Source of the DNA: Escherichia coli
GTDB taxonomy: Bacteria; Pseudomonadota; Gammaproteobacteria; Enterobacterales; Enterobacteriaceae
DNA: 64,000 bases
Strand: one strand, 5' to 3'
NCBI RefSeq assembly: GCF_003018235.1
Contig: NZ_CP027437.1
The position numbers were made by a program, and so were the translations under genes. Under the pieces are notes generated by a model that had not been told where the DNA came from, searched no databases, and was given only the letters and a program-made list of their open reading frames with translations. Position 1 is the stretch's first letter. Every line of letters begins with the position of its first letter. Below are positions 1,893 through 13,177 of this stretch, piece after piece.

Positions 1893-1950
1893 TCTTGACG
1901 GAAATCCGGGCTATCATGCCCGGATTAAGTCTGATGACAAAAGCAAAATC

Positions 1951-3259
<1,309 letters not shown>

Positions 3260-3284
3260 GTGATTCCTGCAATTTATTGAATTT

Positions 3285-3319
3285 GTAGGCCGGATTGGGC
3301 GTTTACGCCGCATCCGGCA
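3285..3319. repeat. REP palindrome (GTAGGCCGGATTGGGCGTTTACGCCGCATCCGGCA)
   Basis: Imperfect palindrome with GCCGGAT/ATCCGGC arms. Confidence 0.45.
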
Positions 3320-3377
3320 TGAACAAAGCTCACTTTGTCTGCAATCTGAATCCGGGCCACCATGCCCAGTTTATTCT

Positions 3378-6074
3378 TTACTGCCAGCCGTAACGACGGC
3401 TATAGAACCCTTTCACCAACTGGGTTAACGTCATATACCCTGCCAGAATCGCAACCAGCCACGGGAAATAGCTTAACGGCAGCGCCTGCAGCTGCAGATA
3501 ACTGGCCAGCGGTGAAAACGGCAATGCGATCCCGACAATCATCACGATCACGGTCATGATCATTAACGGCCACGATGCACAGCTCTGAATAAACGGTACA
3601 CGACGGGTGCGGATCATATGCACAATCAGCGTTTGCGACAGTAAGCCCACCACAAACCAGCCCGACTGGAACAGCGTTTGCGTTTCCGGCGTGTTGGCAT
3701 GGAATACCCACCACATCAGGCAAAACGTCAGAATATCGAAGATCGAGCTGATCGGTCCGAAGAAGATCATAAAGCGCCCCAGATCCGCCGGATTCCAACG
3801 CTGCGGCTTTTGAATTTGCTCATCGTCGACGTTATCAAACGGGATCGCCACCTGTGACACATCGTACAGCAGGTTCTGAATAAGCAAGTGTAACGGCAAC
3901 ATCGGCAGGAAGGGCAAGAAAGCACTCGCCACCAGCACGCTGAACACATTACCGAAGTTAGAGCTCGCCGTCATTTTGATGTATTTCAGCATGTTGGCGA
4001 AAGTGCGACGTCCCTCAATAACCCCCTCTTCCAGCACCATCAGGCTTTTTTCCAGCAGGATGATATCAGCCGCTTCACGGGCAATATCTACCGCGCCGTC
4101 CACAGAAATGCCGATATCCGCAGCACGTAAGGCGGGCGCATCATTTATACCATCGCCCATAAAGCCAACCACATGCCCTTCGCGCTTCAGTAAGGTCACA
4201 ATGCGTTCTTTATGCATCGGCGTCAGGCGAGCAAACAGCGTGGTGCGCTGTGCGAGATTTGCCAGTTCATCGTCAGATAGCGTTTCAATATCACTACCAA
4301 TGACCACCTCTCCCGCGTCCAGCCCCACTTCATGGCACACTTTCGCTGCAACTAACTCACTGTCGCCAGTAAGGATTTTTACGGTAATGCCACTCGCTTT
4401 TAATGCCTTCAGTGCCGGAGCAGTTGTCTCTTTTGGCGGATCAAGGAAAGCAATATATCCTTCGAGGATCAGGTCGGATTCATCCGCTCGCTGGTAATCG
4501 CCTTCACGCGCTGGCAGGTATTTCGTCGCCACCGCAACCACGCGCAGCCCCTGACGATTCAGCGTATCGGTAACCCGCTTAATCTTACGCAGCATGATGT
4601 CATCGAGTGGTACAATCTCGCCATTGTGACGCACCTGCGAACACACATTGAGGATTTCCTGCAATGCACCTTTGCAAACCAGCTGATGGTGCTCGGTATT
4701 TTCTGCCACTACCACCGACATCCGGCGACGCTCGAAATCAAACGGAATCTCATCAATTTTTTGCCAACGGCTGGCCAGCGAGCGCGCTGACTCTTCATCC
4801 GTACGTTCGAGCACCGCGGTATCAAGCAGGTTTTTAAGTCCGGTCTGGTAATGACTGTTCAACCACGCGCTATGCAGCACGCGTTCGCTGGTTTTACCGG
4901 AGATATCGGTATGATTCTCCAGCACAATTTTGTCCTGCGTCAGGGTGCCGGTTTTATCAGTGCACAGAATATCCATTGCGCCAAAGTTCTGAATGGCATC
5001 CAGATGCTTGACGATCACTTTCTGTTTCGACAGCTTTACTGCGCCGCGCGCCAGCGTCGAGGTAACAATCATCGGCAACATTTCTGGCGTTAAGCCTACC
5101 GCGACCGAAAGCGCAAACAGTGCCGCTTCCCACCAGTCACCTTTGGTGTAACCGTTGATAAGCAACACCACCGGAGCCATCACCAGCATAAAGCGAATCA
5201 GCAGCATACTGACGCGGCTGATCCCTTGCTGAAAGGCATTCGGCTCGCTTTCCTGCTCACTAACACGCCCCGCCAGTTGACCAAACCAAGTGTTGGCTCC
5301 TGTAGCAATCACCATTGCTTGTGCCGTGCCGCTCACCACGGTGGTGCCCATAAAACACAGGGTGTCGCACTCCAGCGGATTGCTGTGCTCCGGCTGGCGA
5401 GTGGTTGCAGCTTTTTCTACGGGCAGAGACTCGCCGGTTAACGACGCCTGAGCGACGAACAGATCCCGCGCCTGCAAGATACGTAAATCTGCCGGGATCA
5501 TATCTCCCGCCGCCAGTTTTATAATATCGCCGGGCACCAGCTGGTCGATCGGGATCTCCAGCCAGCCATTTTCGCCTTTGTCGTTAATTACGCGCAGCAC
5601 CGTCGCGGTATTGCTGACCATCGCTTTCAGGGCATCTGCCGCTTTAGTGGAACGTGCTTCCTGAATAAAGTTCAGCAACGTAGAAATAGCGACCATTAGC
5701 GCGATAACACCCGCGGCAAATAAATCTTCCGTGGCGTAAGAAATAGCGCCGAGAATGGTGAGTAAAATATTAAAGGGGTTGCGATAGCAGACCCATAAAT
5801 GAACCCACCACGGCGACGGTTGTTGTGCGGGTAATTTATTTTCACCATGTTGTTCGCGGGCAGATTCCACTTCCGCCTGATTTAATCCTTCCGGATGGGT
5901 GTCGAACGTTTTCCACAATTCTTCTTCGGGCATCACCGCCATTTTCAGGCAATGCGCACTTAAGGACGGCGGGACCGCCGTATTCACTGTCTGCTGCGCG
6001 CCAGGCAATGGATCGCGATGAACCAGACGGGAAGGTAAATGGCGAATGAACCGGGTAAAAATTTCTTTAAACAT
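3378..6074 (-). CDS. mgtA: Mg2+-importing P-type ATPase
   Basis: 898-aa ORF; P-type ATPase motifs DKTGTLT and GDGINDAPAL visible in translation. Confidence 0.95.
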   Translation of the reverse strand: MFKEIFTRFIRHLPSRLVHRDPLPGAQQTVNTAVPPSLSAHCLKMAVMPEEELWKTFDTHPEGLNQAEVESAREQHGENKLPAQQPSPWWVHLWVCYRNPFNILLTILGAISYATEDLFAAGVIALMVAISTLLNFIQEARSTKAADALKAMVSNTATVLRVINDKGENGWLEIPIDQLVPGDIIKLAAGDMIPADLRILQARDLFVAQASLTGESLPVEKAATTRQPEHSNPLECDTLCFMGTTVVSGTAQAMVIATGANTWFGQLAGRVSEQESEPNAFQQGISRVSMLLIRFMLVMAPVVLLINGYTKGDWWEAALFALSVAVGLTPEMLPMIVTSTLARGAVKLSKQKVIVKHLDAIQNFGAMDILCTDKTGTLTQDKIVLENHTDISGKTSERVLHSAWLNSHYQTGLKNLLDTAVLERTDEESARSLASRWQKIDEIPFDFERRRMSVVVAENTEHHQLVCKGALQEILNVCSQVRHNGEIVPLDDIMLRKIKRVTDTLNRQGLRVVAVATKYLPAREGDYQRADESDLILEGYIAFLDPPKETTAPALKALKASGITVKILTGDSELVAAKVCHEVGLDAGEVVIGSDIETLSDDELANLAQRTTLFARLTPMHKERIVTLLKREGHVVGFMGDGINDAPALRAADIGISVDGAVDIAREAADIILLEKSLMVLEEGVIEGRRTFANMLKYIKMTASSNFGNVFSVLVASAFLPFLPMLPLHLLIQNLLYDVSQVAIPFDNVDDEQIQKPQRWNPADLGRFMIFFGPISSIFDILTFCLMWWVFHANTPETQTLFQSGWFVVGLLSQTLIVHMIRTRRVPFIQSCASWPLMIMTVIVMIVGIALPFSPLASYLQLQALPLSYFPWLVAILAGYMTLTQLVKGFYSRRYGWQ

Positions 6075-6340
6075 AAGGAGTCCCTCCGCACTGTCTGAAA
6101 CAGTACAGAAATGTCTTCAGGCGTGGCGAAGCCTTACCTGAAGGTAATAAAGCTGAGCAGGGACGTTAAAACGTCACGGCCTTACGCATCCGGTAACGCC
6201 GTGAAAAGACGGGCTTACCGGAAAAGTTTTAATCTCCGTCGAGGGAGAGGCGTGGGATCAGGTTCCATATAACCTCCGGTAAGTGAAAAAAGCGCCGCAA
6301 ATAATAAGGAGAATCCAATAATATTCGTAGCATCTATGGC
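6075..6340 (-). promoter_or_regulatory. mgtA 5' leader (Mg2+/proline-responsive attenuator region)
   Basis: Long untranslated leader upstream of mgtA containing the mgtL leader ORF; extent approximate. Confidence 0.5.
6215..6268 (-). CDS. mgtL: mgtA leader peptide (17 aa, [17 protein letters not shown])
   Basis: Last 17 codons of the spurious 113-aa ORF 6215..6556; ATG at 6268-6266; proline-rich. Confidence 0.7.
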
Positions 6341-6452
6341 GATATAATACCTGCTGGCAACTAAACCAACGATAAACCAGACTTTACCCATTGCTGAATG
6401 CACGGGTAAAGTTAGGCTCAAATAATTAAACAACACGTTACGGGACAACAGG

Positions 6453-7400
6453 ATGCAAAATCGGCTGACCATCAAAGACATCGCGCGCTTAAGCGGCGTG
6501 GGGAAATCTACGGTTTCCCGGGTGCTGAATAACGAAAGCGGCGTGAGCCAGCGCACGCGCGAGCGTGTTGAAGCAGTGATGAATCAGCATGGATTTTCCC
6601 CTTCCCGCTCTGCGCGCGCTATGCGTGGGCAAAGCGATAAAGTGGTCGCCATCATTGTTACCCGTCTGGATTCGTTGTCAGAAAATCTCGCCGTTCAAAC
6701 CATGCTGCCAGCGTTCTATGAACAAGGTTACGATCCAATCATGATGGAAAGTCAGTTTTCCCCGCAATTAGTTGCCGAACATTTGGGGGTGCTGAAACGG
6801 CGTAATATCGACGGCGTAGTGCTGTTCGGTTTTACCGGCATAACAGAAGAAATGTTAGCCCACTGGCAGTCATCGCTGGTTCTGCTGGCGCGTGACGCAA
6901 AAGGCTTTGCTTCGGTCTGTTATGACGACGAAGGGGCAATCAAGATCCTGATGCAACGGCTGTATGACCAGGGACATCGTAATATCAGTTATCTCGGCGT
7001 GCCGCACAGTGACGTGACGACCGGTAAGCGACGTCACGAAGCCTACCTGGCGTTCTGCAAAGCGCATAAACTGCATCCCGTTGCCGCCCTGCCAGGCCTT
7101 GCTATGAAGCAAGGCTATGAGAACGTAGCAAAAGTGATTACGCCTGAAACTACCGCCTTACTGTGCGCAACCGACACGCTGGCACTTGGTGCAAGTAAAT
7201 ACCTGCAAGAGCAACGCATCGACACCTTGCAACTGGCGAGCGTCGGTAATACGCCGTTAATGAAATTCCTCCATCCGGAGATCGTCACCGTAGATCCTGG
7301 TTACGCCGAAGCTGGACGCCAGGCGGCCTGCCAGTTGATCGCGCAGGTAACCGGGCGCAGCGAACCGCAACAAATCATCATCCCCGCCACCCTGTCCTGA
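6453..7400 (+). CDS. treR: trehalose operon repressor (LacI family)
   Basis: 315-aa ORF; N-terminal HTH IKDIARLSGVGKSTVSRVLN. Confidence 0.9.
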   Translation: MQNRLTIKDIARLSGVGKSTVSRVLNNESGVSQRTRERVEAVMNQHGFSPSRSARAMRGQSDKVVAIIVTRLDSLSENLAVQTMLPAFYEQGYDPIMMESQFSPQLVAEHLGVLKRRNIDGVVLFGFTGITEEMLAHWQSSLVLLARDAKGFASVCYDDEGAIKILMQRLYDQGHRNISYLGVPHSDVTTGKRRHEAYLAFCKAHKLHPVAALPGLAMKQGYENVAKVITPETTALLCATDTLALGASKYLQEQRIDTLQLASVGNTPLMKFLHPEIVTVDPGYAEAGRQAACQLIAQVTGRSEPQQIIIPATLS

Positions 7401-7439
7401 TCGTTTCCTGAACGATAAATTGTGATCTTCGCTGCGTTT

Positions 7440-7453
7440 CGGGAACGTTCCCG
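7440..7453. promoter_or_regulatory. candidate TreR operator (perfect palindrome CGGGAACGTTCCCG)
   Basis: 14-bp perfect palindrome centred on CG, 65 bp upstream of treB; LacI-family operators are typically of this form. Confidence 0.4.
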
Positions 7454-7518
7454 TTTTTAAATTTTTCCGCGCAATATATTCTGCAGCCAACCAAAAATGT
7501 CATCTGCCATGGGGCTTT

Positions 7519-8940
7519 ATGATGAGCAAAATAAACCAAACGGATATCGATCGGTTGATTGAACTGGTCGGCGGGCGCGGCAATATTGCGACGGTGAGCC
7601 ACTGTATTACTCGCCTGCGCTTTGTCCTCAACCAACCGGCCAATGCCAGACCGAAAGAAATTGAGCAACTCCCCATGGTGAAAGGCTGTTTCACCAATGC
7701 CGGGCAATTTCAGGTGGTGATTGGCACCAACGTGGGTGATTACTATCAAGCACTGATTGCGTCAACCGGACAGGCGCAGGTTGATAAAGAGCAGGTAAAA
7801 AAAGCCGCACGGCAGAATATGAAATGGCATGAGCAGTTGATCTCTCATTTCGCGGAGATCTTCTTCCCGTTGCTGCCCGCGCTGATTAGCGGCGGTTTGA
7901 TCCTCGGGTTTCGCAATGTGATCGGCGATTTGCCCATGAGCAACGGTCAAACGCTGGCGCAAATGTACCCTTCCCTGCAAACGATCTACGATTTTCTGTG
8001 GTTGATCGGTGAAGCGATCTTCTTCTACCTGCCGGTCGGGATTTGCTGGTCAGCGGTGAAAAAAATGGGCGGCACGCCGATCCTTGGTATCGTGCTTGGC
8101 GTAACGCTGGTTTCTCCACAGCTGATGAACGCTTATCTGCTCGGGCAGCAGCTGCCAGAAGTGTGGGACTTTGGCATGTTCAGCATCGCCAAAGTGGGCT
8201 ATCAGGCGCAGGTGATCCCGGCACTGTTAGCCGGGCTGGCGCTGGGCGTTATTGAAACTCGCCTTAAACGCATCGTGCCGGATTACCTCTATCTGGTGGT
8301 GGTGCCCGTCTGTTCGCTGATCCTCGCGGTGTTCCTCGCCCATGCGCTGATTGGTCCGTTTGGTCGCATGATTGGCGATGGCGTTGCCTTTGCGGTACGT
8401 CACCTGATGACCGGCAGCTTTGCTCCGATTGGCGCGGCATTGTTTGGCTTCCTGTACGCCCCACTGGTGATCACCGGCGTACACCAGACCACGCTTGCTA
8501 TTGATTTGCAGATGATTCAAAGCATGGGTGGCACGCCAGTGTGGCCGCTGATTGCACTGTCGAATATCGCTCAGGGCTCCGCCGTGATAGGTATTATCAT
8601 TTCCAGCCGCAAGCACAATGAACGCGAGATCTCCGTGCCTGCCGCTATCTCCGCCTGGCTTGGAGTCACTGAGCCTGCTATGTACGGCATCAACCTGAAA
8701 TATCGCTTCCCGATGCTGTGCGCGATGATTGGTTCTGGTCTGGCAGGATTGCTATGCGGCCTGAACGGCGTTATGGCGAATGGCATCGGCGTAGGCGGCC
8801 TGCCGGGAATTCTCTCGATTCAACCGAGCTACTGGCAGGTGTTTGCGCTGGCAATGGCTATCGCCATCATCATCCCGATTGTACTCACCTCGTTTATCTA
8901 TCAGCGGAAATACCGCCTGGGCACGCTGGACATTGTTTAA
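7519..8940 (+). CDS. treB: PTS trehalose-specific EIIBC component
   Basis: 473-aa ORF; EIIB cysteine motif VSHCITRLR near the N-terminus; polytopic membrane domain. Confidence 0.9.
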   Translation: MMSKINQTDIDRLIELVGGRGNIATVSHCITRLRFVLNQPANARPKEIEQLPMVKGCFTNAGQFQVVIGTNVGDYYQALIASTGQAQVDKEQVKKAARQNMKWHEQLISHFAEIFFPLLPALISGGLILGFRNVIGDLPMSNGQTLAQMYPSLQTIYDFLWLIGEAIFFYLPVGICWSAVKKMGGTPILGIVLGVTLVSPQLMNAYLLGQQLPEVWDFGMFSIAKVGYQAQVIPALLAGLALGVIETRLKRIVPDYLYLVVVPVCSLILAVFLAHALIGPFGRMIGDGVAFAVRHLMTGSFAPIGAALFGFLYAPLVITGVHQTTLAIDLQMIQSMGGTPVWPLIALSNIAQGSAVIGIIISSRKHNEREISVPAAISAWLGVTEPAMYGINLKYRFPMLCAMIGSGLAGLLCGLNGVMANGIGVGGLPGILSIQPSYWQVFALAMAIAIIIPIVLTSFIYQRKYRLGTLDIV

Positions 8941-8989
8941 TTTTCTTCGGGGCGCAATTGCGCCCCCTCGCATTTGCAGGAATAACGTA

Positions 8990-10645
8990 ATGACTCATCT
9001 TCCCCACTGGTGGCAAAACGGCGTTATCTACCAGATTTATCCAAAAAGTTTTCAGGACACCACGGGTAGCGGCACCGGCGATTTACGTGGCGTTATCCAA
9101 CGCCTGGATTATCTGCATAAACTGGGCGTTGATGCCATCTGGCTAACCCCCTTTTATGTCTCTCCCCAGGTCGATAACGGTTACGACGTAGCGAATTATA
9201 CGGCGATTGATCCCACCTATGGCACGCTGGACGATTTTGACGAACTGGTGACACAGGCAAAATCGCGCGGGATTCGTATCATTCTCGATATGGTGTTTAA
9301 CCATACCTCTACCCAACATGCCTGGTTTCGCGAGGCGCTGAACAAAGCAAGCCCTTACCGCCAGTTTTATATCTGGCGCGATGGAGAACCAGAAACACCA
9401 CCGAACAACTGGCGTTCAAAATTTGGCGGTAGTGCGTGGCGCTGGCATGCGGAAAGCGAACAGTACTATTTGCATCTCTTTGCACCAGAACAGGCGGATC
9501 TCAACTGGGAGAATCCAGCGGTACGCGCAGAGCTGAAAAAAGTCTGTGAGTTCTGGGCCGATCGTGGGGTCGACGGGTTGCGCCTGGATGTGGTGAATCT
9601 GATCTCCAAAGATCCGCGTTACCCTGAAGACCAGGATGGCGACGGGCGTCGCTTCTACACCGACGGGCCACGAGCACACGAGTTTTTGCACGAGATGAAC
9701 CGCGATGTGTTTACGCCACGCGGGTTAATGACCGTAGGTGAAATGTCCTCCACCAGCCTTGAGCATTGCCAGCGATACGCGGCTCTGACAGGCAGTGAAT
9801 TGTCGATGACCTTTAATTTTCATCACCTGAAGGTCGATTATCCCGGTGGTGAGAAATGGACGCTGGCTAAACCTGACTTTGTGGCGTTGAAAACATTGTT
9901 CCGCCACTGGCAACAAGGAATGCACAACGTGGCATGGAATGCCTTGTTCTGGTGTAACCACGATCAGCCGCGCATTGTTTCTCGCTTTGGTGATGAAGGT
10001 GAATACCGCGTGCCTGCGGCAAAAATGCTGGCGATGGTGCTGCATGGCATGCAGGGAACGCCGTATATCTACCAGGGCGAAGAGATTGGCATGACCAACC
10101 CGCATTTCACGCGCATTACTGACTATCGCGACGTGGAGAGCCTCAATATGTTTGCCGAGCTGCGCAACGATGGGCGTGATGCCGACGAGTTATTGGCAAT
10201 CCTCGCCAGTAAATCCCGTGACAACAGTCGCACACCCATGCAATGGAGCAACGACGATAATGCCGGGTTTACGGCTGGCGAACCGTGGATTGGCCTGGGC
10301 GATAACTATCAACAAATCAACGTAGAAGCCGCGCTGGCCGATGAGTCCTCGGTGTTTTACACCTACCAAAAGTTAATCGCACTGCGTAAGCAAGAAGCCG
10401 TTCTGACATGGGGCGATTACCAGGATCTGCTGCCAAACAGCCCTGTATTGTGGTGCTATCGCCGTGAATGGAAGGGGCAAACCTTACTGGTCATTGCCAA
10501 CCTTAGCCGTGAGACCCAACCCTGGCAGCCAGGGAAAATGCTCGGCAACTGGCAGCTTGTGATGCATAACTACGAAGAAGCCTCACCACAACCCTGTGCC
10601 ATGACTTTACGGCCTTTTGAGGCTGTCTGGTGGTTACAGAAGTAA
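8990..10645 (+). CDS. treC: trehalose-6-phosphate hydrolase (GH13)
   Basis: 551-aa product from ATG 8990 (MTHLPHWWQNGVIYQIYPKSF); ORF-track start 8843 is an upstream extension overlapping treB. Confidence 0.9.
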   Translation: MTHLPHWWQNGVIYQIYPKSFQDTTGSGTGDLRGVIQRLDYLHKLGVDAIWLTPFYVSPQVDNGYDVANYTAIDPTYGTLDDFDELVTQAKSRGIRIILDMVFNHTSTQHAWFREALNKASPYRQFYIWRDGEPETPPNNWRSKFGGSAWRWHAESEQYYLHLFAPEQADLNWENPAVRAELKKVCEFWADRGVDGLRLDVVNLISKDPRYPEDQDGDGRRFYTDGPRAHEFLHEMNRDVFTPRGLMTVGEMSSTSLEHCQRYAALTGSELSMTFNFHHLKVDYPGGEKWTLAKPDFVALKTLFRHWQQGMHNVAWNALFWCNHDQPRIVSRFGDEGEYRVPAAKMLAMVLHGMQGTPYIYQGEEIGMTNPHFTRITDYRDVESLNMFAELRNDGRDADELLAILASKSRDNSRTPMQWSNDDNAGFTAGEPWIGLGDNYQQINVEAALADESSVFYTYQKLIALRKQEAVLTWGDYQDLLPNSPVLWCYRREWKGQTLLVIANLSRETQPWQPGKMLGNWQLVMHNYEEASPQPCAMTLRPFEAVWWLQK

Positions 10646-10788
10646 ATCTTCGCTAAGCCCCGGTAATGCCTGTCATTCCGGGGTTTTGCCTGTCAGTATG
10701 TTGTTTTTGTTGATTTTATAATCAAAAAATTCATTAAAAAATTTACATATCGCTGTAGCGCCCGTCATCCGTACGCTCTGCTTTTTAC

Positions 10789-10802
10789 TTTGAGCTACAT
10801 CA
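10789..10802. promoter_or_regulatory. candidate FNR site (TTGAGCTACATCAA)
   Basis: Matches TTGAT-N4-ATCAA with one mismatch, about 240 bp upstream of the anaerobic nrdD gene. Confidence 0.35.
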
Positions 10803-10829
10803 AAAAAAGTTCAAACATCCTTGATGCAA

Positions 10830-10877
10830 AGCACTATATATAGACTTTAAAATGCGTCCCAACCCAATATGTTGTAT
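10830..10877. promoter_or_regulatory. two candidate NrdR boxes (CACTATATATAG and CAATATGTTG)
   Basis: Palindromic AT-rich boxes about 31 bp apart upstream of nrdD; resemble NrdR-box consensus as recalled. Confidence 0.35.
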
Positions 10878-11038
10878 TAATCGACTATAATTGCTACTAC
10901 AGCTCCCCACGAAAAAGGTGCGGCGTTGTGGATAAGCGGATGGCGATTGCGGAAAGCACCGGAAAACGAAACAAAAAAACCGGAAAACGTCTTTCCCAAT
11001 TTCTGTGGATAACCTGTTCTTAAAAATATGGAGCGATC

Positions 11039-13177
11039 ATGACACCGCATGTGATGAAACGAGACGGCTGCAAAGTGCCGTTTAAATCAGAGCGCATCAA
11101 AGAAGCGATTCTGCGTGCAGCTAAAGCAGCGGAAGTCGATGATGCCGATTATTGCGCCACTGTTGCTGCGGTTGTCAGCGAGCAGATGCAGGGCCGCAAC
11201 CAGGTGGATATCAATGAGATCCAGACCGCAGTTGAAAACCAGCTGATGTCGGGTCCATACAAACAACTGGCTCGTGCTTACATCGAGTACCGTCACGATC
11301 GCGACATTGAACGTGAAAAACGCGGTCGCCTGAACCAGGAGATCCGTGGTCTGGTCGAGCAGACCAACTCCTCGTTACTCAACGAAAACGCCAACAAAGA
11401 CAGCAAGGTGATTCCAACCCAGCGCGACCTGCTGGCCGGGATCGTGGCTAAACACTATGCACGCCAGCACCTGCTGCCGCGTGACGTGGTGCAGGCACAT
11501 GAACGTGGTGATATTCACTATCACGATCTCGATTACTCACCGTTCTTCCCGATGTTCAACTGCATGTTGATCGACCTGAAAGGCATGCTGACCCAGGGCT
11601 TTAAAATGGGGAACGCCGAGATTGAACCGCCGAAGTCGATCTCTACGGCAACCGCGGTAACTGCGCAGATTATTGCCCAGGTCGCCAGCCATATTTATGG
11701 CGGCACCACCATTAACCGTATCGATGAAGTGCTGGCACCGTTTGTCACCGCCAGCTACAACAAACATCGCAAGACCGCAGAAGAGTGGAACATCCCGGAC
11801 GCCGAAGGCTACGCTAACTCTCGTACCATCAAAGAGTGCTACGATGCCTTCCAGTCGCTGGAGTACGAAGTAAACACCCTGCATACCGCCAACGGTCAAA
11901 CGCCGTTTGTAACCTTTGGTTTTGGTCTGGGCACCAGCTGGGAGTCGCGCCTGATTCAGGAATCGATCCTGCGTAACCGTATCGCCGGCCTCGGTAAAAA
12001 CCGTAAAACGGCGGTGTTCCCGAAACTGGTGTTTGCGATTCGCGATGGCCTGAACCATAAAAAAGGCGATCCGAACTACGACATCAAACAGCTGGCGCTG
12101 GAGTGCGCAAGCAAGCGCATGTATCCGGATATCCTGAACTACGATCAGGTAGTGAAAGTCACCGGTTCGTTTAAAACCCCGATGGGCTGCCGCAGCTTCC
12201 TCGGCGTGTGGGAAAATGAAAACGGCGAGCAGATCCACGATGGTCGTAACAACCTCGGCGTGATCAGCCTGAACCTGCCGCGTATTGCGCTGGAAGCAAA
12301 AGGCGATGAAGCCACCTTCTGGAAGCTGCTGGATGAACGTCTGGTGCTGGCACGTAAGGCGCTGATGACCCGTATCGCCCGTCTGGAAGGCGTGAAGGCA
12401 CGCGTAGCTCCTATCCTCTATATGGAAGGTGCTTGTGGCGTGCGTCTGAATGCTGACGATGATGTTTCTGAAATCTTCAAAAACGGTCGTGCATCTATTT
12501 CGCTGGGTTACATCGGCATCCACGAAACCATTAACGCGCTGTTCGGCGGCGAGCATGTTTATGACAACGAGCAGCTTCGCGCGAAAGGTATCGCGATTGT
12601 TGAACGTCTGCGTCAGGCAGTGGATCAGTGGAAAGAAGAAACGGGTTATGGTTTCAGTCTCTACAGCACGCCGAGTGAAAACCTGTGCGACCGCTTCTGC
12701 CGTCTCGATACCGCTGAGTTTGGCGTGGTGCCGGGCGTGACCGATAAAGGTTACTACACCAACAGTTTCCACCTTGATGTGGAGAAAAAGGTGAACCCGT
12801 ATGACAAGATCGACTTTGAAGCGCCTTACCCGCCGCTGGCGAACGGTGGTTTCATTTGCTACGGCGAGTATCCAAACATTCAGCACAACCTGAAGGCGCT
12901 GGAAGATGTCTGGGATTACAGCTATCAGCATGTACCGTATTACGGCACCAATACGCCGATCGATGAGTGCTACGAGTGTGGCTTTACTGGCGAGTTCGAG
13001 TGCACCAGCAAAGGCTTCACTTGCCCGAAATGTGGTAACCATGACGCCTCCCGTGTGTCGGTAACTCGCCGCGTGTGCGGATATTTAGGTAGCCCGGATG
13101 CACGTCCATTTAACGCCGGTAAGCAGGAAGAAGTTAAGCGCCGCGTTAAACATTTGGGGAATGGGCAGATAGGTTAA
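11039..13177 (+). CDS. nrdD: anaerobic ribonucleoside-triphosphate reductase
   Basis: 712-aa ORF; C-terminal glycyl-radical region and zinc-ribbon cysteines (CYECG...CPKCG) visible. Confidence 0.95.
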   Translation: MTPHVMKRDGCKVPFKSERIKEAILRAAKAAEVDDADYCATVAAVVSEQMQGRNQVDINEIQTAVENQLMSGPYKQLARAYIEYRHDRDIEREKRGRLNQEIRGLVEQTNSSLLNENANKDSKVIPTQRDLLAGIVAKHYARQHLLPRDVVQAHERGDIHYHDLDYSPFFPMFNCMLIDLKGMLTQGFKMGNAEIEPPKSISTATAVTAQIIAQVASHIYGGTTINRIDEVLAPFVTASYNKHRKTAEEWNIPDAEGYANSRTIKECYDAFQSLEYEVNTLHTANGQTPFVTFGFGLGTSWESRLIQESILRNRIAGLGKNRKTAVFPKLVFAIRDGLNHKKGDPNYDIKQLALECASKRMYPDILNYDQVVKVTGSFKTPMGCRSFLGVWENENGEQIHDGRNNLGVISLNLPRIALEAKGDEATFWKLLDERLVLARKALMTRIARLEGVKARVAPILYMEGACGVRLNADDDVSEIFKNGRASISLGYIGIHETINALFGGEHVYDNEQLRAKGIAIVERLRQAVDQWKEETGYGFSLYSTPSENLCDRFCRLDTAEFGVVPGVTDKGYYTNSFHLDVEKKVNPYDKIDFEAPYPPLANGGFICYGEYPNIQHNLKALEDVWDYSYQHVPYYGTNTPIDECYECGFTGEFECTSKGFTCPKCGNHDASRVSVTRRVCGYLGSPDARPFNAGKQEEVKRRVKHLGNGQIG

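Follow-up and report, generated by a model that had tools for sequence, protein, structure and literature searches.

A conserved, uridine-poor RNA hairpin between treB and treC as the probable 3' end of the treB message in Escherichia coli

Main finding

The spacer separating treB from treC in Escherichia coli encodes an RNA hairpin on the + strand that very probably forms the 3' end of treB RNA. Its stem was conserved and displayed covariation throughout the Enterobacteriaceae recovered, published maps place an in vivo RNA end 5 nt downstream of it, and treB-only transcripts coexist with treB-treC transcripts. The reading that we prefer, with a probability of about 0.55, is that the hairpin blocks 3'-to-5' exonucleases and leaves a stable treB 3' end.

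Position and sequence of the element

All positions refer to the window, i.e. the whole 64,000-nt stretch of E. coli DNA analysed. The features of the tre region are the following.

6453-7400, + strand: treR (ORF list).
7519-8940, + strand: treB, coding for the PTS trehalose transporter IIBC (ORF list; RefSeq annotation of matching E. coli genomes).
8941-8948, + strand: U-rich linker TTTTCTTC, from the treB stop codon to the hairpin (sequence).
8949-8966, + strand: RNA hairpin, with 5' arm GGGGCGC (8949-8955), loop AATT (8956-8959) and 3' arm GCGCCCC (8960-8966).
8967-8971, + strand: single-stranded tail CUCGC, 5 nt, with the published in vivo RNA 3' end at 8971.
8970-8974, + strand: GC↓AUU, a match to the RNase E core RN↓WUU, with a predicted cut (arrow) between 8971 and 8972.
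8978-8981, + strand: treC Shine-Dalgarno sequence AGGA, 11 nt 3' of the stem and 8 nt before the ATG.
8990-10645, + strand: treC, coding for trehalose-6-phosphate hydrolase (ORF list, translation), expressed via read-through of the hairpin.
10658-10687, + strand: operon-end terminator CCCCGG...CCGGGG followed by TTTT, used as comparator (sequence; Term-seq; SMRT-Cappable-seq).

A preliminary description had reported a perfect 18-nt palindrome devoid of a U-tract in the treB-treC spacer, and this was confirmed at 8949-8966. Inspection of the sequence showed GGGGCGCAATTGCGCCCC to be a perfect inverted repeat with arms of 9 nt and a spacer of 0, and what follows it, CTCGCATTTG, contains no T-run. 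A gap of 8 nt separates the treB stop codon (TAA, 8938-8940) from the palindrome, and one of 23 nt the palindrome from the treC ATG at 8990. The stop-to-stem linker, 8 nt in the window, ranged from 5 to 15 nt in relatives, and its positions 8946-8947 were T in 94% and 86% of 78 species, respectively.

The element lies in the treB-treC spacer of the E. coli chromosome, and 5425 of 5426 complete E. coli genomes matched the region. Within these ~5400 genomes, the 90-nt region was 97.8-100% identical and occurred at a median of one place per genome; in the window, the element was single-copy even with three mismatches allowed. The earlier statement that it is not REP-like was thus correct, REP/BIME elements being defined by many dispersed copies of a ~35-nt imperfect palindrome consensus, as opposed to a single copy here. 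One of the ~5400 genomes, that of strain SL124 (NZ_CM194971.1; locus L081, 1501-1575), displayed a 16-nt deletion, TTGCGCCCCCTCGCAT, aligned to window positions 8958-8973, which removes the 3' arm of the hairpin together with the mapped 3' end. Short TTGC repeats flank this deletion, which amounts to a natural knock-out unless it is an error of assembly.

Palindromes of this size can arise by chance. Of 200 dinucleotide-preserving shuffles of the 64-kb window, 57 contained one or more perfect palindromes of at least 18 nt, so the statistics of an 18-nt palindrome are no argument for function. The reality of the hairpin rests instead on its conservation and on the published mapping of transcript ends.

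RNA fold and conservation of the stem

At the RNA level, RNAfold predicted a 7-bp stem made exclusively of G/C pairs with the 4-nt loop AAUU (-15.0 kcal/mol). The preliminary description had proposed a 9-bp stem without loop; this holds for the DNA, where the 9-nt arms adjoin with no spacer, whereas RNA allows only the 7-bp stem and 4-nt loop.

TreC was used to scan genomes, one for each species, and 80 Enterobacteriaceae loci were recovered, 77 of which had a treB-treC spacer of ~39-57 nt. The protein search returned close relatives alone, and the conservation figures given here cover Enterobacteriaceae. A hairpin was found at the same place in all 77 spacers, nearly always as GGGGCGC-N4-GCGCCCC with a predicted energy of ~-15 kcal/mol. 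The loop was variable among species (AATT, AGTT, CGTT, ATTT, CATT, GCTG, GAAA and others). Since the loop varies while the 7-bp stem is kept, the perfect palindrome is incidental: on the sequences compared, its perfection is owed to the AATT loop that this E. coli lineage happens to share with a few others.

Pairing itself was strongly conserved. Among 75 distinct sequences, 99.2% of the pair cells held standard pairs and four of the seven pairs displayed compensatory changes on both sides, as illustrated by GGGGTGC/GCACCCC in two Citrobacter and by different stems in Buttiauxella and Franconibacter. None of 500 shuffles reached the observed values of pairing and covariation, controls slid along the alignment were only 53-73% paired, and the RNAalifold consensus was the same helix. 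Two single-side changes (loci L002 and L062) created G-U wobbles, which pair only as + strand RNA. Conservation of the stem also contrasted with that of its surroundings, as seen from the identity to the window in the 78-species comparison:

Stem positions: 98%.
Loop positions: 59%.
Four-fold degenerate sites in the last 60 treB codons: 51%.

By contrast, the hairpins found 3' of treC differed freely in sequence between genera. Downstream of the stem, the Shine-Dalgarno positions 8978-8980 were invariant and position 8981 was conserved in 97% of the 78-species alignment, with a spacing of 11 nt between stem and AGG in 49 of the 78 species. Within the loop, positions 8958-8959 were T in 87% and 81% of the 78 species, while its first two bases varied freely; this preference for T at the last two loop bases is left unexplained by the pairing model.

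Other identities were considered for the element. An extended helix joining the upstream UUCUU to the Shine-Dalgarno AGGAA, which would sequester the latter, was predicted neither by the single-sequence fold nor by RNAalifold. Rfam families gave no match at 8900-9000 with E-values up to 10, the only real match in 6000-11500 being the mgtA magnesium riboswitch.

Published transcript ends

Mapping of the 3' ends of tre transcripts had been proposed as a check, and Term-seq data of strain MG1655 published by Adams et al. (2021, eLife 10:e62438; Supplementary file 1) provide it. They include a 3' end at 4464728 (minus strand; 425,606 reads, LB at OD 0.4) classed as the primary 3' end of treB, for which the listed string is GCACGCTGGACATTGTTTAATTTTCTTCGGGGCGCAATTGCGCCCCCTCG[C]ATTCGCAGGA. 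In the strings of that file, position 51 corresponds to the 3'-terminal nucleotide, as checked on the CCA end of a tRNA-Leu and on the U-tail of SgrS. The treB RNA ends in ...GCGCCCC-CUCGC; this dominant treB end lies 5 nt past the stem, at window position 8971. For comparison, the end at the treC terminator (4463010, same strand) collected 64,109 reads (Adams et al. 2021). The treB end had 6.6 times more reads, so that the hairpin end holds 87% of the Term-seq reads combined over the hairpin and the treC terminator. All entries for treB and treC in that Supplementary file 1 are confined to the LB OD 0.4 sheet, and treB is undiscussed in the text of the article.

Five more 3' ends internal to the treB ORF were recorded in the same LB OD 0.4 data (Adams et al. 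2021), between MG1655 positions 4465154 and 4466176 (window ~7520-8550). For three of them, Supplementary file 3 gives Rho scores below 1 and low intrinsic-terminator scores. These internal ends look like intermediates of decay or processing.

The second data set was obtained by SMRT-Cappable-seq, which captures full-length 5'-triphosphate transcripts (Yan et al. 2018, Nat Commun 9:3676). A single start site at 4466210 (8155 reads) leads there to two called ends, i.e. a treB-only end at 4464727 (514 reads) and a treB-treC end at 4463009 (1148 reads), both flagged as novel, that is, absent from the EcoCyc terminators. No treC-only transcript is listed in that study. The co-transcription of treB and treC assumed earlier is thereby supported, treB-treC transcripts arising from a single start site.

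Estimating read-through required attention to column order. The M9 sheet of Yan et al. (2018) gives passing-through reads, then reads within 50 bp downstream, and this order was confirmed on its prs-dauA row, where 71/(73+71+11) = 46% agrees with the text of the paper. Applied to the treB row, the M9 order is impossible, because only 54 reads would pass through although the operon end is reached by 1148 reads that share this start site. From this conflict we infer, on internal consistency, that the sheet with the treB rows has these two columns in exchanged order. With the columns so exchanged, 6108 of 6676 transcripts (~91%) would read through the hairpin; ~8% of the primary full-length transcripts end at it. 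Users of Supplementary Data 1 of Yan et al. (2018) should check rows 4464727 and 4463009, whose column order is apparently opposite to that of the M9 header.

Uridine content of the tail

The tail of the E. coli hairpin, CUCGCAUUUG, has one T in its first 5 nt and three in its first 8 nt, which is not a U-tract, and the K-12 tail CUCGCAUUCG is even poorer in U than that of the window. A consensus terminator scan of the window did not call the site, the best allowed tail window containing 4 T for a threshold of 5. The E. coli element displays the GC-rich stem-loop of a canonical intrinsic terminator but not its U-tract of ~7-8 nt, and the earlier view that it is no standard intrinsic terminator was therefore borne out in this species by both the tail and the silent scan.

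Relatives formed a graded series. By a lenient criterion of 5 T or more within an 8-nt stretch 3' of the stem, 28 of the 78 species qualified; most others had 4 T. T-rich tails after the same stem were found in Klebsiella (CCTTTTTTGT), Kosakonia (TTCTTTTTTG) and Trabulsiella (CTTTTTTAG). The tail of Salmonella diarizonae, AACGCACU, has 1 T in 8 nt with the stem kept, and conservation of the stem thus does not hinge on a U-tract. Judging from such tails, the hairpin is probably also a leaky intrinsic terminator in the relatives endowed with T-rich tracts (Klebsiella, Kosakonia, Trabulsiella and others).

Five Kosakonia-like loci (L046, L056, L058, L059 and L062) combined the shortest stop-to-stem distance (5 nt) with the best post-stem T-tracts. 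In such loci, a stronger terminator may be kept in check by the terminating ribosome; shared ancestry could account for the combination equally well.

Proposed mechanism

In the preferred reading, polymerase starting at the treB promoter would transcribe treB and treC as one unit and, just past the treB stop codon, the RNA would fold into the 7-bp G/C hairpin of ~-15 kcal/mol. Because there is no U-tract in E. coli, most polymerases would read on into treC. The bicistronic RNA would later be cut or terminated downstream, one candidate cut being the RNase E-like GC↓AUU located 5 nt past the stem, although cuts deeper in treC are also possible. PNPase and RNase II would then degrade the RNA 3'-to-5' back to the hairpin and stall there, yielding a stable treB-only mRNA that ends 5 nt past the stem, and the treB segment would outlast the treC segment. 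Message levels of transporter and hydrolase would thus be uncoupled. The nucleases named, the respective shares of termination and processing, and an effect on the TreB:TreC ratio are inferred parts of this scheme.

U-less stem-loops are known to stop PNPase and RNase II and thereby to set the 3' ends found at steady state, and such stems can turn into intrinsic terminators merely by gaining uridines (Dar and Sorek 2018, NAR 46:6797). The E. coli element has the traits of such protective 3' stem-loops, namely a stable stem, a Term-seq end at +5 and a tail low in U. The published read counts point in the same direction: a read-through of ~91%, with the columns taken as swapped, would make the hairpin far leakier than the Term-seq ratio suggests, a gap to be expected if stable products of processing make up most of the ends seen at steady state.

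The candidate cut deserves caution. RN↓WUU is the core motif of RNase E (Chao et al. 2017), and the cut predicted from it coincides exactly with the mapped 3' end, in a GC↓AUU linker that is unpaired in the centroid fold. An RN↓WUU match between stem and Shine-Dalgarno was present in 48 of the 78 species, leaving 5 nt after the stem in 43 of them; yet this 5-nt motif is of low information and a chance match is expected about once in 64. An RNase E site requires the core motif to be unpaired where the end is mapped, as predicted here, and the coincidence is suggestive only of a possible RNase E cut. Searches by gene name returned no entries for treB or treC in the TIER-seq supplements, nor in the TERMITe supplement.

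Alternative explanations

Exonuclease barrier and weak intrinsic termination are non-exclusive routes. As an account of the E. coli element, a leaky, non-canonical intrinsic terminator or attenuator is the main rival, possible but less likely: the hairpin would release some polymerases a few nt downstream in spite of its poor U-tract, perhaps with the assistance of NusA or NusG, and would set the treB:treC transcription ratio directly. A GC-rich 7-bp stem with a tetraloop is typical of terminators, and the same stem carries T-rich tails in many relatives, 28 of the 78 species passing the tail threshold. The treB-only end was moreover called on 5'-triphosphate primary transcripts (Yan et al. 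2018), while the lack of a listed Rho region and the switch of mechanism by U content described by Dar and Sorek (2018) are consistent with this reading. Two of these points count against the barrier model as well, since 5'-triphosphate transcripts ending at the hairpin fit some genuine termination and, judging from the tails, termination may be an ancestral function or one that is still partly exerted. Against the leaky terminator stand the E. coli tail, with one U in its first 5 nt and fewer still in K-12, the failed terminator scan, the stem retained by S. diarizonae above 1 T in 8 nt, and a read-through that is apparently ~91% (columns assumed swapped). Intrinsic-terminator ends usually lie 7-9 nt past the stem, and the mapped end, at +5 and outside U residues, is shorter than that. 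The preliminary description had hesitated between a stability or processing element and a partial attenuator; the Term-seq end and the two isoforms support a role at the RNA level, either as stabiliser or as weak terminator.

Rho-dependent termination early in treC, for instance upon poor translation of treC, followed by exonucleolytic trimming to the hairpin, is unlikely. U-less 3' stem-loops are a class for which this route has been demonstrated (Dar and Sorek 2018), but no bicyclomycin-sensitive Rho region is listed at 4463xxx-4465xxx (Adams et al. 2021, Supplementary file 2, for which the authors caution of under-calling). Rho termination followed by trimming thus finds no support in that list, and the downstream cut of the barrier model would then come from an endonuclease or from ordinary decay. 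Furthermore, the treC start with its strong Shine-Dalgarno, the ATG being 23 nt past the stem, leaves scant untranslated RNA for the loading of Rho. It is very unlikely that the hairpin serves mainly treC, either as a 5' stem-loop stabilising a processed treC mRNA or as a structure of the standby region tuning treC translation. Stem-loops at the 5' end do stabilise mRNAs, the case of ompA being established, the 11-nt spacing to the Shine-Dalgarno recurs in 49 of the 78 species, and the U-rich upstream linker contains AA↓UUU, which resembles RN↓WUU. However, the abundant end puts the hairpin at the 3' end of treB RNA and not at the 5' end of treC RNA, and neither RNAfold nor RNAalifold predicted pairing with the Shine-Dalgarno.

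The least probable reading, to which we give next to no weight, is a DNA palindrome that binds a dimeric protein or that arose by chance and has no function. The inverted repeat is indeed perfect, and palindromes of such length arose in 57 of the 200 shuffles; yet an identity of 98% in the stem versus 51% at neutral sites rules chance out. As for the binding site proposed among the earlier options, it was unsupported: the centre of the palindrome is not conserved, no promoter-like site lies near 8949-8966, the RNA 3' end was mapped right at the stem, and the wobble variants (T, G-to-T) break the symmetry of the DNA while keeping G-U pairs in a + strand RNA stem. Finally, the hairpin-capped 3' piece of treB might itself be a stable regulatory RNA, i.e. 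a 3'-end-derived sRNA or a sponge; its near-invariant GGGGCGC/GCGCCCC stem would then be maintained through recognition by a specific RNA-binding protein, for instance one of the ProQ type that binds U-less 3' hairpins. This would fit the very high number of Term-seq reads, and it would also fit a stem whose sequence is conserved well in excess of what pairing requires; nothing tested speaks directly for it, and we regard it as a long shot. If true, a regulatory RNA from the treB 3' end would link trehalose uptake to other targets.

Comparison with known systems

The exonuclease barrier that we favour brings the element closest to the class of Dar and Sorek (2018), with which it shares a GC-rich stem of terminator-like stability, a precise 3' end a few nt downstream and a low uridine content; switching by U content, described by these authors, is visible here among the 78 species. 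Rho-dependent transcripts, at the ends of genes, served to define their class, whereas the treB-treC stem is internal to an operon, 23 nt before a start codon, with no Rho region listed, and its dependence on exonucleases is proposed here.

RNase E intercistronic sites (Chao et al. 2017) resemble the present one by a mapped end at GC↓AUU and a single-stranded linker beside a stable stem, but the treB-treC site is known by a short motif that may match by chance. Leaky internal terminators and attenuators, such as the read-through ends of Yan et al. (2018), likewise have two isoforms from one start with a hairpin at the boundary, and relatives display T-tracts; the E. coli copy differs in lacking the defining U-tract and in having its end at +5, outside a U run.

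A further parallel is the malE-malF spacer. Its REP hairpins are reportedly intercistronic stabilisers responsible for differential expression within the operon, and both systems have in common an intercistronic hairpin, accumulation of the upstream segment and a proposed barrier to 3'-to-5' exonucleases. Unlike these, the treB-treC element is not a REP/BIME but a single-copy element of 18 nt with another sequence, vertically inherited with its operon.

Other hairpins and elements in the window

A second U-less hairpin was observed 3' of ridA (TCCGGGCTATCATGCCCGGA, 1905-1924, + strand), followed by TTAAGTCTGA up to ~1934. It has no U-tract and coincides with a strong Term-seq end at 4470491 (188,006 reads; Adams et al. 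2021).

The treR-treB spacer contains a perfect 14-nt palindrome, CGGGAACGTTCCCG, at 7440-7453 (+ strand), followed by TTTTT and called terminator-like by the scan. Transferred coordinates put the treB transcription start (K-12 4466210) at window ~7489, and the palindrome ~36-49 nt before it. Possible roles are those of treR terminator and of operator for TreR (LacI-type), alone or together.

mgtA and its magnesium riboswitch occupy the - strand of the window, the riboswitch being intact in the mgtA leader at 6168-6283 (Rfam RF01056, 125.8 bits). Between ridA and mgtA, within ~1930-3370, an ORF of 326 aa (2170-3150, + strand) carries the IS110-family transposase domains PF01548 and PF02371. 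K-12 coordinate arithmetic suggests ~1.26 kb of extra DNA at ridA-mgtA relative to MG1655. The ORF presumably resembles that of IS621, an element with a bridge-RNA recombinase.

Novelty and significance

A full-text literature search found nothing specific on the hairpin itself. The treB 3' end is already present, uncommented, in two published tables; its conservation, its covariation and the tail series were not found described. The element is small and of a familiar type, and with its end already tabulated the gain is modest.

For the organism, the finding means that a hairpin internal to an operon splits one transcription unit: the transporter message ends there, and the enzyme message is made via read-through. 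Annotations and expression models of the treBC operon should include the treB-only isoform. For the family, the tails found on the same stem across 78 Enterobacteriaceae species, from U-poor to true U-tracts, make up a natural series in which the ease of interconversion between protective stem-loop and intrinsic terminator may be tested.
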